DNA from: a virus
Virus record (IMG/VR): IMGVR_UViG_3300045988_110202
Location: 1 to 64,000 of that record
Length of the DNA stretch: 64,000 bases
Direction: 5' to 3' (one strand)
This document shows positions 833 to 4,338 of the stretch, in pieces; the first letter of the stretch is position 1; each line of letters begins with the position of its first letter. The notes under the pieces were generated by a model. The model had not been told where the DNA came from. It saw only the letters and a list, made by a program, of their open reading frames with translations, and searched no databases. A program made the position numbers and the translations under genes.

Positions 833-1666
833 TTACACCATTCCTCTCACAATTCGTTCATTTGTTGTCATCAAGAAGTTATTGATACGATCCCAGTCTG
901 GTTCGTCTGGCAAATCAGTATTCATATAATCATAATCAAATTGATAAAGTAATCCTTCAATAAAAACATTGTATGACTGATTTGGGAAATATTCTGTATG
1001 CTCATTGTGTTTGCCAAATCTATATGTTTTATGCGTACTATTGTACCCTTCTTTGATCTTTACAAGATCTTTTCCTATGTCATCCATAGATCCAAACATT
1101 GTTCCGTTATGTAATAATTCAATACCCTGTAACAATAATCGAACTGCGTGCATCATTGATTTATTAGCGTATCGTTCCGCCTTTTGCTTTTCTTTCTCTG
1201 AATCTTTATTTTTATAATACTTAAAACTCGTTCGAGTCAGGCAATCACATATATATCCTTTATATGCATGATAAACTCTCTTAGATAAAAACATATCTCT
1301 ATTTTTGATCAGTTCCATACCAATATCAGATATATATAAATAGCGGTCTGGTGCAAAATATAACAGCTCTAAAAACGTAGGATTACCCTTTGCAAGCATA
1401 TTGATCATCTTAATATGCGAATGTAACACAGTATCAACATCTTTATGATCGTCTGTCTTTTCAAGATTATTTGGATTATTATTCAACAAAATCTCTCTTT
1501 TATCACTAAGTAAAACACCACGTAAATCAATGTCAGAATCCTCTGTATTTGTTCCGTAAGCATAACTTCCACCTAGTGTGAGAAAAGCGATTTTATGCGG
1601 ATAATTTCGCAAAAAATCATACTCTGTAGACGAGTTTATGTAATCCTTTACTTCTTCAATTGTCAT
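833..1666 (-). CDS. Pol-beta superfamily nucleotidyltransferase (minimal NTase fold)
   Basis: 277 aa; 'LTLGGSYAYGTNTEDSDIDLRGV' = G[GS]-x9-13-DxD NTase motif, followed by a helical C-terminal domain; ATGA overlap with the sigma factor gene. Confidence 0.6.
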   Translation of the reverse strand: MTIEEVKDYINSSTEYDFLRNYPHKIAFLTLGGSYAYGTNTEDSDIDLRGVLLSDKREILLNNNPNNLEKTDDHKDVDTVLHSHIKMINMLAKGNPTFLELLYFAPDRYLYISDIGMELIKNRDMFLSKRVYHAYKGYICDCLTRTSFKYYKNKDSEKEKQKAERYANKSMMHAVRLLLQGIELLHNGTMFGSMDDIGKDLVKIKEGYNSTHKTYRFGKHNEHTEYFPNQSYNVFIEGLLYQFDYDYMNTDLPDEPDWDRINNFLMTTNERIVRGMV

Positions 1667-2214
1667 GGTTTCACCGCCTTTGCCCTATGCATTATTTTTT
1701 TAATATTACCAAGTTGCCAACTTACCCATTGAATACTCTTTCCAAATTCTTTGGCTATGTATTTATGTTCAATATCATCAAGTAACATATATATAATTTT
1801 CTTCTGCTTGTCTGACAATTTGTTAAATTCTCCTTGATAATATACTGTTGTTAATGCTTGACTCTCTACGTCATCGTTACTCACAAGCAAACTACCAATT
1901 GTTAATTCTTCTGCGTCAACTCTTTTGTCAACAGGTGTATCCAATGATTCCGCATTTCTGTTCATTTTCTCTGTTGGGCTATGCCATTTTATATAATATT
2001 TATTAATTTCTGACTGTAATACCCATCTAAAATACGTCCCAAAATTACCTTTAGACTCATCCCATTTTAATGCTGCTTTGCAAATTGCCATACGACCAAG
2101 ATCCATATATGTATCAAAATCTGTAAACTTTGTAAAATATTTTTCATGTAAATGCCAAATCAAAGAGTAATTATCTTCAATCAGCCTTTGCTGTTCATCA
2201 TTTAGTTTCTTCAC
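1663..2214 (-). CDS. sigma-70 family RNA polymerase sigma factor (ECF-like/late-gene sigma)
   Basis: 183 aa; region 2-like 'YMDLGRMAICKAALKWDESKGNFGTYFRWVLQSEINKYY' and C-terminal region 4 HTH 'IAKEFGKSIQWVSWQLGNIKKIM'. Confidence 0.7.
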   Translation of the reverse strand: MKKLNDEQQRLIEDNYSLIWHLHEKYFTKFTDFDTYMDLGRMAICKAALKWDESKGNFGTYFRWVLQSEINKYYIKWHSPTEKMNRNAESLDTPVDKRVDAEELTIGSLLVSNDDVESQALTTVYYQGEFNKLSDKQKKIIYMLLDDIEHKYIAKEFGKSIQWVSWQLGNIKKIMHRAKAVKP

Positions 2215-2983
2215 ATCTCTTTGCCTCCTGTTCTTTAATGAATTTTTGTACTTCCTCTACATAACTTAATTCAAAATATCTTTCAATATACCCGCCCATT
2301 GGAACTCCAGTATATTTAAAATTAGGAATAGTTTCTTTTAGTTGACCACAAACCTCAGATCTAAATGTGTTTGTATATTTTTTCAAATCATTCATGGAAT
2401 ATGTTTGTTTAAAATGTGGCATATCAAGAGTGTTAAATAGTCTCCATAAAAAATTACTATTTCTATACTTTGTTAATTTAGCATCACGTAATTCATCCAT
2501 AAAATCTCTCATAAATCGGATTATCTTATCAACATCTTTTGATGCTAATTCAAATACTAAATTTTCTGATTCATCATAATATCTATAATCATCATATTTT
2601 GTATTTGAATAAATCTTGTATACCTCATTTTTGCCTGATAGATTTGCTGATATATTATCAACATTCAAAACTTTGCCATTTTTCATAACTATTTCATCAC
2701 TACACAATATCGCAGGAGATGTTATAGAAAACTTATCCAATAAAACATATTGAGGGCTCAGATTAAAATGTGGATTATGATCGTCAAAATTACAAAACAT
2801 CTCCGCTAACTCAATATGATCCTTGTTTCTCAATGAATTAATTTCTGTCCATTCATCACCAAGACAAATACCACGTACTGTTTTTAAAACCCTTTTTCCA
2901 TAAATCTCTACATCGGCTTCCCAATCTGGATCTCTGTTTTTACTAAAAGCAAGTTCAATTTCTCTTGTATTTTCCCTTGACAT
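2198..2983 (-). CDS. hypothetical protein
   Basis: 261-aa ORF, overlaps the sigma factor start; no motif recognised. Confidence 0.45.
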   Translation of the reverse strand: MSRENTREIELAFSKNRDPDWEADVEIYGKRVLKTVRGICLGDEWTEINSLRNKDHIELAEMFCNFDDHNPHFNLSPQYVLLDKFSITSPAILCSDEIVMKNGKVLNVDNISANLSGKNEVYKIYSNTKYDDYRYYDESENLVFELASKDVDKIIRFMRDFMDELRDAKLTKYRNSNFLWRLFNTLDMPHFKQTYSMNDLKKYTNTFRSEVCGQLKETIPNFKYTGVPMGGYIERYFELSYVEEVQKFIKEQEAKRCEETK

Positions 2984-2986
2984 ACA

Positions 2987-3940
2987 TCACACTCCTAACA
3001 CATACTTATCACTTCTGAACCCAGCTGCATTTGGATGTCCGCCACCACCATATTTCACAGCAAGCTCATATACATTTACTTTATCTTGTTCTGCGGATCG
3101 CAACTGATATTCCCACATACTACCATTGAATGAAAAACCAATGAACATGTCGTATTTAGAAGCGTCAATAGACTCAAAGAAATCAGAATTGATTAAAGCT
3201 CGGTTGATCGCATAGACTTTATATCCCTCAAATGTGGTTTCAAAACCATATGCTCTAAGATATTGTTCTGCATTTGCTGCTAAATACTCAATAATTGATA
3301 AGCCATCTGCTATCATATCACCAATAATTTTTGCTGCTTCATAAATTCCTTGATCTTTATTTAACGTGTTTAGCAATGGACTTAACGCATCAAAATCATA
3401 CGATTCAAATGCATAGTGAAATGCTTTTACGAATTGTTTTGACGTTTCACCAAAATAAAATGTATCCCACATGGCTGTATATTCTGCCAGTTTTGGATAA
3501 TCTGCTTTATATTTATATATATTGAGTAATCTTTTTACATTTTTCTCATCCGTCCTCTCAATTTGCTCCCAATTTTCATCACACATATATTTAAAATATA
3601 ACCATGTCAAATTCGCTCCTGAAATACCCGCTCCAGTAATTCTGATTCCTTTTACATCACACTTGAAATCTTTATACGCTTCAATCGTAGACTGATGATG
3701 GTCGATCCAAAATACATTCTTTGTAATACTGAGCAACTGCCACATCTCTTCTGGCTCAATACTGTAGTCTACAATAAACACAAATTCATCCTGCTCAATG
3801 TCATGAAACGGGAATTTCATGCCGTAATTAATTTTTCGGAAGTCCTCTGGTTCAAATGCTAAACCTCGCTGTTCACAAGCTTTTCTAACGTAAAAACCAG
3901 ATACAATTCCGTCTTGATCAACGTGATAAAAACATTTCAT
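2987..3940 (-). CDS. DHH-DHHA1 phosphoesterase, NrnA-like nanoRNase / pAp phosphatase
   Basis: 317 aa; DHH motif I 'YHVDQDGIVSG', motif II 'FIVDYS', motif III 'WIDHHQS', motif IV 'GAGISGAN', DHHA1 'YGGGGHPNAAGF'. Confidence 0.8.
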   Translation of the reverse strand: MKCFYHVDQDGIVSGFYVRKACEQRGLAFEPEDFRKINYGMKFPFHDIEQDEFVFIVDYSIEPEEMWQLLSITKNVFWIDHHQSTIEAYKDFKCDVKGIRITGAGISGANLTWLYFKYMCDENWEQIERTDEKNVKRLLNIYKYKADYPKLAEYTAMWDTFYFGETSKQFVKAFHYAFESYDFDALSPLLNTLNKDQGIYEAAKIIGDMIADGLSIIEYLAANAEQYLRAYGFETTFEGYKVYAINRALINSDFFESIDASKYDMFIGFSFNGSMWEYQLRSAEQDKVNVYELAVKYGGGGHPNAAGFRSDKYVLGV

Positions 3941-4338
3941 TATTTTTCCTCCTTTAATTTATTATTAATAAATTTTGCACACTCTTGCATAGCATTTTTA
4001 CCACTAAAAACTTTAGCTATTCCATTATCTTTACATAGATTCTCAACGGCTTTAAGATCATGTGCGATTGTGTCTCCGCTATATAAATTTAAGAAGATTG
4101 TTTTTTTGGGACGTTTATTTACATCATCTACCAATTCTGCTATAGAATATACTCCTCTAATTCCTTTTGTAATACCATACACGACATAATCTGCTGTTTC
4201 TCTTTCGTAGACTTCTTTTTGCCTGTCTTTTTCACTCCAACCATGAGTGATTGGATTATAATAATTGCATTCAAGCATTTTCTGGAATTTATTTCTCCAT
4301 TTCCATCCAGAAGTTGTACCACCTAAAAATACTTTCAT
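3940..4338 (-). CDS. nucleoside 2-deoxyribosyltransferase-like (PF05014-like Rossmann) protein
   Basis: 132 aa; N-terminal 'MKVFLGGTTSGWKW' (compare 'KTIYFGAGWF' of NDT) and 'RGVYSIAELVDDV' with a candidate catalytic Glu; overlaps the stop of the upstream gene. Confidence 0.45.
   Translation of the reverse strand: MKVFLGGTTSGWKWRNKFQKMLECNYYNPITHGWSEKDRQKEVYERETADYVVYGITKGIRGVYSIAELVDDVNKRPKKTIFLNLYSGDTIAHDLKAVENLCKDNGIAKVFSGKNAMQECAKFINNKLKEEK

Follow-up and report, generated by a model that had tools for sequence, protein, structure and literature searches.

We examined a group of five genes at positions 833 to 4,338 of a 64,000-nucleotide (nt) stretch of viral DNA (IMG/VR record IMGVR_UViG_3300045988_110202, positions 1 to 64,000), hereafter the window. 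All five open reading frames (ORFs) lie on the minus strand, as a sequence-only reading had proposed. In order of transcription, they encode a nucleoside deoxyribosyltransferase (NDT)-like protein, a stand-alone DHH-DHHA1 phosphoesterase (hereafter DHH), an ORFan, a sigma factor, and an RlaP-family nucleotidyltransferase. In related loci, the DHH gene repeatedly lies next to genes for RlaP, the CCA-adding enzyme, Thg1, and tRNAs, and we tentatively propose that DHH and RlaP work on RNA 3' ends.

The DHH gene (2987..3940, minus strand) encodes 317 amino acids (aa) and matches phrog_4771 'DHH phosphoesterase' at 4e-36. The claim that its DHH and DHHA1 motifs are intact was borne out: H6, D8, D10, D58, D80-H81-H82, D159, and G298-GGG-H302 are all present. 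Motifs I-IV (DxD, D, DHH, D) and the DHHA1 GGGH are invariant or nearly so in 16 homologues, down to 41% identity. The Pfam DHH and DHHA1 matches are sub-threshold for the window protein, and some relatives reach the gathering score for DHH and/or DHHA1. The AlphaFold2 (AF2) model, with a predicted local distance difference test score (pLDDT) of 88, displays the DHH and DHHA1 two-domain fold with a helical linker. Foldseek retrieved 71 PDB matches at E<=1e-3, and the top 50 listed were all DHH-DHHA1 proteins. The best was the uncharacterised H. pylori 6mtz; S. aureus NrnA/Pde2, TmPDE, PggH, an archaeal pAp phosphatase, and RecJ/Cdc45 cores were also found, with E about 1e-8 to 1e-9 and identities of 10-17%. 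With sequence profiles, the alignment to solved structures was confined to the surroundings of GGGH. PDB NrnA sequences gave E values of 0.06 (single sequence) and 2.5e-4 (profile) over ~35 residues around this motif, and the NrnA equivalog NF053633 scored 15.9 bits against a cut-off of 350, aligning the GGGH region only. JGI labels two of the DHH homologues as NrnB/COG2404.

The protein shares the ~300-aa two-domain layout and all the motifs of the stand-alone DHH-DHHA1 nano-RNases and phosphatases (NrnA, NrnB, Pde2, TmPDE, PggH, and archaeal pAp phosphatase). It differs from them in that its family is viral or prophage-borne and has RNA-end enzymes as neighbours. The chain ends 15 residues past GGGH, so it has no C-terminal extension. 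NrnB proteins that have been characterised all degrade RNA starting at its 3' end; short RNAs of 2-5 nt are favoured by those that lack a long C-terminal extension (PMC12709177).

An exhaustive profile search placed 2,104 clusters of 50% identity in the DHH family at E<=1e-30, nearly all of them 270-330 aa long. Two members (P0243 and P0247) carry a fused C-terminal P-loop kinase-like domain of ~160 aa, with the Walker A motifs FPGCGKT and HPCSGKS and weak matches to AAA_18, AAA_33, and RapZ_N. By analogy, this layout is reminiscent of kinase-phosphatase RNA end-healing enzymes. For P0247, a PDB sequence search with the P-loop tail gave no significant match and the genomic context was uninformative. 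One other member is fused to a GIY-YIG homing endonuclease. Besides, homologues with 31-32% identity occur in Methanobacterium genomes (L136-L142; such labels denote the loci compared), at a chromosomal position conserved in several Methanobacteriaceae and with no RNA-end neighbours detected; the family thus reaches archaea. We also considered a RecJ-like single-stranded DNA exonuclease and rejected it: the NCBIfam archaeal RecJ model scored 22.6 bits against 360, and neither an OB or extra domain nor replication neighbours were found.

The last of the five genes (833..1666, minus strand, 277 aa) had been described as a minimal nucleotidyltransferase, and this description had to be replaced. 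PF10127 scores 82 bits (cut-off 23) over residues 20-266 of 277, phrog_388 matches at 3.7e-41, and the Pol-beta GS...DxD active site is present in the translation as GGSYAYGTNTEDSDIDL: the protein is a full RlaP, an RNA 3'-end enzyme. Its N-terminal domain is 38-41% identical to RlaP of the RlaP-CCA-DHH operons described below. An MNT/MntA-type reading was discarded, with MntA at 22.6 bits against 60, a C-terminal helical domain in the protein, and no HEPN partner found; enzymes of that type consist of the nucleotidyltransferase domain alone (~100-140 aa) and are as a rule paired with HEPN. RlaP takes its name from its genomic association with RNA ligase. None of the annotated neighbours in the window or the sister loci is an RNA ligase, although no search with an RNA-ligase seed was made. 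The RlaP family adds one or two nucleoside monophosphates to RNA 3'-OH ends and helps to restore the function of damaged tRNA (PMC12776372).

Between DHH and RlaP lie two more genes. The sigma factor call held: the 183-aa protein (1663..2214, minus strand) is of the sigma-70/ECF (extracytoplasmic function) type with regions 2 and 4, passes TIGR02937 at 44.4 against 42.9 bits over residues 8-175, and matches phrog_351 at 1e-18, with Sigma70_r2 and r4 each sub-threshold. The conserved N-terminus KKLNDEQ of homologues argues for its GTG start. A sigma gene downstream of DHH is found in three SPbeta-like lineages, namely the window family, the L009 group, and L079; in the L009-type phages it follows DHH directly and RlaP is absent. 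In L004, a NUMOD/I-HmuI-like homing endonuclease gene (12018-12983) is inserted between sigma and RlaP.

The middle gene (2198..2983, minus strand, 261 aa), to which no function had been assigned, is indeed an ORFan, with no Pfam, PHROG, NCBIfam, PADLOC, or PDB match and only 15 homologous clusters. Our comparison set comprised about 140 related loci, of which 54 were close relatives with the flanking gene needed to count the states of a variable slot described below. The 261-aa form is present in 43 close loci, and in 11 of the 54 relatives an unrelated 175-aa gene takes its place. What the two forms have in common is confined to their final ~15 residues, in the overlap with the sigma start.

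Recurrent neighbours of the DHH gene

We grouped the viral DHH loci into 22 lineages, each a cluster at 70% identity. Within 4 kb of DHH, RlaP was found in seven lineages, the CCA-adding enzyme in six, and Thg1 in five. When the distance was extended to 8 kb and tRNA genes were included, 13/22 lineages had at least one of the four. For RlaP, if a chance rate of 0.08 is assumed, a rough binomial P for 7/22 is about 0.001, a value that is indicative only since the lineages are not fully independent.

The linked DHH homologues are 34-56% identical and sit in same-strand operons with abutting genes. RlaP-CCA-DHH operons were retrieved in L011, L073, L078, L088, L121, L124, and L135, and RlaP-DHH in L075 and L120; apart from L007 and L011, one or the other arrangement is found in five viral lineages, and likewise in prophages of Lachnospiraceae A4, Eubacterium plexicaudatum, Eubacteriales, and Christensenella. 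The prophage locus L007 (GCA_019972995.1) holds RlaP, a 313-aa protein, a CCA-adding enzyme, DHH, and Thg1, all abutting; a PDB sequence search with the 313-aa spacer between RlaP and CCA gave no significant match. In L011 the order is a radical-SAM-like gene, RlaP, CCA, DHH, and a gene for an Acb2/Tad1-hairpin protein. Thg1, a phrog_1649 metallophosphoesterase, and tRNA arrays lie a few kb from DHH in L076, L077, L112, L128, and L123. Moreover, a 17-member group of ~60-kb phages carries a Gln-Leu-Met tRNA cluster ~4 kb upstream of DHH.

In the window family DHH precedes RlaP, opposite to the RlaP-CCA-DHH order seen elsewhere, and the DHH-RlaP linkage is thus not one inherited operon. On a rough neighbour-joining tree, the RNA-end contexts are concentrated in the subfamily that holds the window protein, and the deeper branches lack them. 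The RlaP/CCA/Thg1/DHH operons contain end-adding enzymes and no RNA ligase. This composition points to ligase-independent repair or maturation of tRNA termini rather than to religation of the anticodon loop.

The tight gene run and its variable slot

The sequence-only reading had described the five genes as coupled by overlapping starts and stops, and this was correct for most junctions. The gene upstream and the NDT-like gene overlap by 4 nt (ATGA), the NDT-like and DHH genes by 1 nt (TAATG), the ORFan and the sigma gene –with its GTG start– by 17 nt, and sigma and RlaP again meet at ATGA. However, DHH and the ORFan are separated by a 3-nt spacer, and the boundary drawn around five genes is arbitrary. 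Taking an overlap or a distance of <=10 nt as a tight junction, we counted 23 of 78 across the leftward array (1-44.5 kb), and eight consecutive ones, each <=3 nt, fall at this locus, a density above what is usual in the array. The tight run has eight genes (44-4655): the five genes, a 106-aa gene upstream, and two genes downstream.

The 106-aa gene (4335..4655, minus strand) has homologues in 55 loci and forms the upstream border of the variable slot, its stop overlapping the start of the next gene. Directly after RlaP lies an 89-aa HigA-like helix-turn-helix (HTH) gene (561..830, minus strand; TIGR02607 at 41.8 bits against a cut-off of 47.7, phrog_1381 at 8.6e-11), orphan antitoxin-like and without a toxin partner. 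It is kept after RlaP in 51 loci; its role may be that of a regulator or of a decoy antitoxin. The last gene of the run within the window encodes 177 aa (44..577, minus strand) and was found in 52 loci. Neither the 106-aa nor the 177-aa protein has a family match in Pfam, PHROG, or NCBIfam.

No minus-strand terminator-like sites were found in 1-10000. The best-scoring promoter-like site, TTGACA-17-TATATT (9130..9158, minus strand), has 11 of 12 matches to the consensus and is a consensus match only. It sits just upstream of the gene at 8668-9075 and faces a divergent HTH_26 gene (9225-9443). Judged on sequence, it is likely the start of the leftward operon that holds the cluster. Since the run continues beyond the five genes, no terminator appears in 1-10000, and the promoter-like site lies at 9158-9130, the five genes make up only an arbitrary section of an early operon that extends further.

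Between the 106-aa gene and DHH there is a slot that we found in five states among the 54 close relatives: two Tad2-like genes (16), the NDT-like gene alone (14, window included), both (12), neither, the slot being empty (6), and a different 231-aa ORF (6). The NDT-like gene is therefore present in 26/54 relatives and Tad2-like genes in the slot upstream of DHH in 28/54. Where both occupy the slot, the Tad2-like genes are upstream of the NDT-like gene, which lies directly upstream of DHH. The Tad2-like pair of sister genomes passes PF11195 (34.7 and 45.2 bits against a cut-off of 25), and no PF11195 (Tad2) gene was found within the window. TnpB (OrfB_IS605 / Cas12f-like) genes lie upstream of the slot in L005 (6386-8014) and L006 (6368-7975).

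Aligned with each other, filled and empty alleles differ by an indel of exactly 399 nt that falls at the start codon of DHH and has ...GAAGAATGAAA on either side. The NDT-like gene (3940..4338, minus strand) is an optional, precisely bounded, and exchangeable cassette. Given this exact indel, its start-codon coupling to DHH is a generic packing feature and not evidence for a functional pair. Homologues at ~60-67% identity are common in other Clostridia prophages without DHH nearby, where they are flanked by Dam methylase and NAD-ligase/ThyX/NT5C/NrdD genes; in Lachnospiraceae bacterium A4, the NDT-like gene and DHH are ~30 kb apart on one scaffold. In sharing its slot with Tad2-like genes and in being gained or lost independently, the NDT-like gene resembles the cassettes of Thoeris anti-defence 2 (Tad2) and anti-defence hot spots; it differs from Tad2 in the fold of its protein, for which a role in binding or enzymology is only a candidate.

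The name 'NDT-like' stands at the superfamily level, on the strength of fold searches, and falls short at the family level: PF15891 (Nuc_deoxyri_tr2) scores 26.1 bits, under the gathering score of 30, and PF05014 has no match on the 132-aa window protein. Many of the 60-67%-identical homologues bear a precomputed PF15891 match. The mean column identity of the family is 61%, with G6, T8, G11, W14, R15, Y27-N28-P29, W34, E36, R39, E42, R46, D50, T57, G62, S65, E68, and D71-D72 invariant. The AF2 model (pLDDT 88) displays a flavodoxin-like fold of five strands, and the top Foldseek matches, weak at E ~2e-3, were a putative NDT (4mcj), YtoQ, a purine deoxyribosyltransferase, Rcl, and MilB. With the NDT / DNPH1 (Rcl) / YtoQ / MilB superfamily and the related TIR domains, the modelled protein has in common this five-stranded flavodoxin-like fold, an N-terminal Gly-rich loop, and an invariant Glu after strand 3. 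The window protein differs from the NDT superfamily in its sub-gathering PF15891 score and in being shorter than typical NDTs. We place the predicted fold at the NDT/TIR border and consider the protein a candidate NDT/TIR-superfamily enzyme that might act on a nucleotide N-glycosidic bond. The sequence-only reading had named loss of the catalytic Glu as evidence against its view; in the model, the invariant Glu68 is present after strand 3, which is compatible with catalysis and no proof of it. As judged from the model, its position would correspond to that of the catalytic Glu in NDT, Rcl, and TIR enzymes.

The phage also encodes a second, canonical NDT. In L001-L006, a protein of 157-160 aa with a SIGTSMEIA motif (PF05014 at 31.7 bits against 28.8) is encoded ~4 kb downstream of DHH, past the left end of the window; it occurs in all sister genomes, and after it come a PcfJ-like gene and a further sigma factor. 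The NDT-like protein shows no detectable sequence similarity to this canonical PF05014 NDT, and hhalign was uninformative.

The 231-aa ORF occupies the slot in L014, L020, L021, L037, L041, and L059 (~7250-7950 in each) and contains the colinear motifs GGAPREFL, DIDVV, and DLNILRGMIF, whose spacing resembles that of class-II CCA-adding and poly(A) polymerases. Against the phage CCA enzymes, hhalign gave E=0.13 only, with GGxxRE, DxD, and LRxxxF colinear, and no Pfam, PHROG, or PDB match was found. If it were a CCA-like nucleotidyltransferase, it would recreate, within the window's own family, the adjacency of such an enzyme and DHH.

Phage background and other features of the window

The window has a G+C content of ~33%, and a long leftward gene array of ~44 kb runs to position 1. 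The best explanation for its origin is an SPbeta-like phage of ~160 kb from gut Clostridia (Lachnospiraceae-type hosts). This assignment follows from the downstream markers YorF, YorH, AAA_24, PcfJ, and a second sigma factor, together with a phrog_8308 polymerase-like gene in the window. SPbeta-like phages of Bacillota are marked by YorF, YorH, AAA_24, a YonO-type RNA polymerase, and several sigma factors, and YorF, YorH, and AAA_24 lie downstream in the sister contigs here too. Unlike them, this phage has no GenBank phage similar at the nucleotide level, and its hosts are gut Clostridia rather than Bacillus.

IMG/VR holds dozens of viral contigs of 140-166 kb with the same arrangement, and the genome size is ~150-166 kb. 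The DHH protein recurs unchanged in 229 assembly blocks; the contigs measure 150-210 kb, and one scaffold 547 kb. Homologues of the ORFan and of the NDT-like protein stem from Anaerostipes, Lachnospiraceae, and Romboutsia. A nucleotide search of GenBank phages found no similar DNA, and the sole matches of a GenBank protein search were Brevundimonas jumbo phages, in which the neighbouring genes are all hypothetical.

The polymerase-like protein (49416-52301, plus strand, 961 aa) matches phrog_8308 at 1.8e-93 and, faintly, a PHROG of RNA-dependent RNA polymerases; a single-subunit RNA polymerase of the YonO type is its probable identity, in keeping with SPbeta-like biology. Further along, ARAGORN and Rfam located ten phage tRNA genes (54442-56249, plus strand; Ser, Glu, Tyr, Arg x2, Leu, Asn, Gln, Met, and Trp). 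Reading of their 3' ends found an encoded CCA in 0/10, so these tRNAs depend on a CCA-adding activity. The tRNA-Asn/tRNA-Gln interval of the array contains a full-length ROOL RNA (RF03087, 55191-55779, plus strand; 308.8 bits against a gathering score of 99.1).

A calcineurin-type metallophosphoesterase (22692-23438, minus strand; phrog_1649 at 4e-45, PF00149) is encoded outside the tight run and is a possible additional RNA-end enzyme of the window phage; phrog_1649 genes adjoin Thg1 and DHH in L076, L077, L112, and L128. On the minus strand of the early array it clusters with a PemK/MazF-type toxin-like gene and two tyrosine-recombinase-like genes (21754-22230, 20723-21751, 23435-24385). A RAGATH-18 RNA motif (RF03064, 19773-19845, minus strand; 73.6 bits against a gathering score of 44.9) is intergenic in the same array. 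Finally, a tRNA-like element (9484-9622, minus strand), scored by Rfam at 44.6 bits and missed by ARAGORN, sits in the interval that separates two operons, just upstream of the present operon's promoter region. Its acceptor, D, and T arms are intact, and a ~70-nt AT-rich insert replaces the anticodon loop; conceivable explanations are an intron, a disrupted gene, and a remnant of an attachment site.

Possible function of the DHH and RlaP genes

A mosaic early operon of counter-defence, which combines conserved genes with swap-in cassettes, describes the region best. Within it, we propose that the targets of DHH and RlaP are 3' ends of tRNA/RNA that are damaged or immature, a reading drawn from gene content and sequence to which we give a probability of about 0.45. 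The recurrence of DHH with RlaP, the CCA-adding enzyme, Thg1, and tRNA genes points to RNA or tRNA ends rather than to free nucleotides or signals.

RlaP and CCA-adding enzymes require a 3'-OH. Defence nucleases and toxins often leave tRNA ends that are 3'-phosphorylated, cyclic-phosphorylated, pyrophosphorylated, truncated, or over-extended. An example of defence that targets the tRNA tail is given in PMC12851939. The substrate and order of reactions that we infer would be the following. DHH would strip a blocking 3'-phosphate, 2',3'-cyclic phosphate, or pyrophosphate, or trim a few 3' nucleotides, to yield a 3'-OH, by NrnA/NrnB-type phosphatase chemistry (a pAp-type 3'-phosphatase) or as a short-range 3'-exonuclease. 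RlaP and a CCA-adding enzyme of host or phage would then rebuild the end. In this way, host tRNAs and the CCA-less tRNAs of the phage could stay chargeable under defences that damage tRNA ends. With ten tRNA genes lacking CCA, the DHH and RlaP enzymes could also mature phage tRNAs. We take the sigma factor for an early gene transcribed with the others, whose product would redirect the RNA polymerase of the host, rather than for a regulator dedicated to the pair.

This proposal resembles the known RlaP RNA-repair systems –T4 NrdC.11 with Pnkp/Rnl1 and the RtcB-RlaP-RtcA operons of Pseudomonas– in RlaP itself, the phage counter-defence setting, the end-modifying enzymes, and the phage tRNAs (PMC12776372; PMC7824862). 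The common logic would be to clean an RNA end and then add nucleotides. They differ in their partners: neither an RNA ligase nor a polynucleotide kinase nor RtcA/RtcB is seen close to the window genes, the candidate phosphoesterase is a DHH-DHHA1 protein, and in relatives the partners are the CCA-adding enzyme and Thg1, which direct attention to tRNA termini rather than to anticodon-loop breaks. In a survey of jumbo phages, the RNA end-healers were HAD, 2H, cRec, calcineurin-like, and HD proteins, and DHH was placed in counter-signalling (PMC7824862).

Several observations weigh against a role in RNA-end repair. About 9 of the 22 lineages, mostly on deeper branches, have no RNA-related neighbour within 8 kb, and in the window itself the ORFan and the sigma factor separate DHH from RlaP. 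A seed search of the 64-kb window retrieved no CCA-adding enzyme or Thg1, and the Pfam/PHROG annotation (~1-45 kb and the larger ORFs beyond), for which no RNA-ligase seed was searched, contains no RNA ligase. The background rate of 0.08 behind the enrichment is an assumption, applied to lineages that are not fully independent. DHH proteins without the extension prefer RNAs of 2-5 nt, which fits the hydrolysis of nanoRNA or dinucleotides equally (PMC12709177), and the comparative survey assigns phage DHH enzymes to counter-signalling instead of RNA repair (PMC7824862). Signal degradation would be just as good a fit for the sponge genes, Tad2-like or Acb2/Tad1-like, that adjoin DHH.

Signal degradation is in fact the alternative that survives best, and we still regard it as unlikely. 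Here DHH would be a phosphodiesterase of immune signals or second messengers (cyclic oligoadenylates, the cyclic di- and trinucleotides of CBASS (antiphage signalling based on cyclic oligonucleotides), c-di-AMP, or linear products) in a counter-signalling island with sponge cassettes, and RlaP would be unrelated. Relatives of the same fold include phosphodiesterases of c-di-AMP/pApA and pGpG (GdpP, Pde2, TmPDE, and PggH), this very role was predicted for jumbo-phage DHH enzymes by Iyer et al. 2021 (PMC7824862), and sponge-type genes lie close, with Tad2-like genes just upstream of DHH in 28/54 close relatives and the Acb2/Tad1-hairpin gene immediately downstream in L011. However, the recurrent and often abutting neighbours of DHH are RlaP, the CCA-adding enzyme, Thg1, and tRNA genes, not signal degraders; DHH is fixed whereas the Tad2 cassettes are optional; and no PADLOC or defence-related profile matched. 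The sequence-only reading had offered counter-defence against nucleotide signals as one option. Its counter-defence part agrees with the Tad2-like slot genes and the Acb2/Tad1-hairpin protein of L011, and the phage origin and, RlaP apart, the gene families that it named also stand; the partners that recur with DHH are RNA- and tRNA-end genes.

It is also rather improbable, in our view, that there is no functional module at all, with unrelated early genes made adjacent and coupled through tight packing and cassette shuffling at start-codon junctions. The eight genes of the tight run belong to unrelated families, cassette exchange happens precisely at ATG junctions, strains vary in the ORFan and in what the slot holds, a homing endonuclease has entered between sigma and RlaP in L004, and the L009 group retains DHH-sigma without RlaP, all of which would be expected from shuffling. 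Nevertheless, DHH lies near RlaP, CCA, or Thg1 in lineages with differing gene order and DHH identities of 34-56%, a pattern hard to get by chance.

Nucleotide salvage or modification, in which DHH would degrade nanoRNA or pAp to mononucleotides, the NDT-like protein would exchange or remove bases, and the nucleotidyltransferase would use the products, fares worst and looks quite improbable: the nano-RNase/pAp phosphatase fold of DHH and its missing C-terminal extension (fitting a short-RNA preference), the ThyX, NT5C, NrdD, and NAD-ligase genes around NDT-like homologues in other phages, and the canonical PF05014 NDT ~4 kb downstream in all sister genomes speak for it, but the NDT-like gene is a self-contained cassette that is missing from about half of the near-identical genomes and not linked to DHH elsewhere, RlaP acts on RNA ends and not on free nucleotides (PMC12776372), and the operon has no further nucleotide-metabolism gene. 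The earlier view of the five genes as one coupled salvage or modification module was accordingly given up, with the NDT-like gene optional and unlinked to DHH elsewhere, the ORFan swapped in 11/54 relatives, and the nucleotidyltransferase an RlaP. Counter-defence with tRNA-end repair is the more likely role of the region. The RNA-end model explains the repeated abutting of DHH, RlaP, the CCA-adding enzyme, and Thg1 better than all three alternatives.

A bolder extension, which we would call a long shot, joins the cassette to this model. The NDT/TIR cassette would be an unrecognised anti-defence enzyme or sponge whose Glu68 pocket would serve to destroy or sequester TIR-derived ADP-ribose-type signals or their NAD+ precursor chemistry, and DHH would supply the step, so far missing, that cleans the 3' end when a phage repairs tRNA tails independently of a ligase.

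Bacterial immunity is increasingly recognised to target tRNA ends, through nucleases that cleave the tail and toxins that extend or pyrophosphorylate it, and phage RNA-repair kits have so far been described mainly around ligases and kinase-phosphatases. If DHH takes part in RNA-end repair, it would add a new enzyme class to these kits, beyond the end-healers of the jumbo-phage survey (PMC7824862). The strain-variable slot yields, by guilt by association, an anti-defence candidate in the PF15891-like protein. Moreover, the large and uncharacterised viral DHH-DHHA1 family, with >2,000 clusters at 50% identity, would suggest a ligase-free route of tRNA-end repair that could be reconstituted in vitro.

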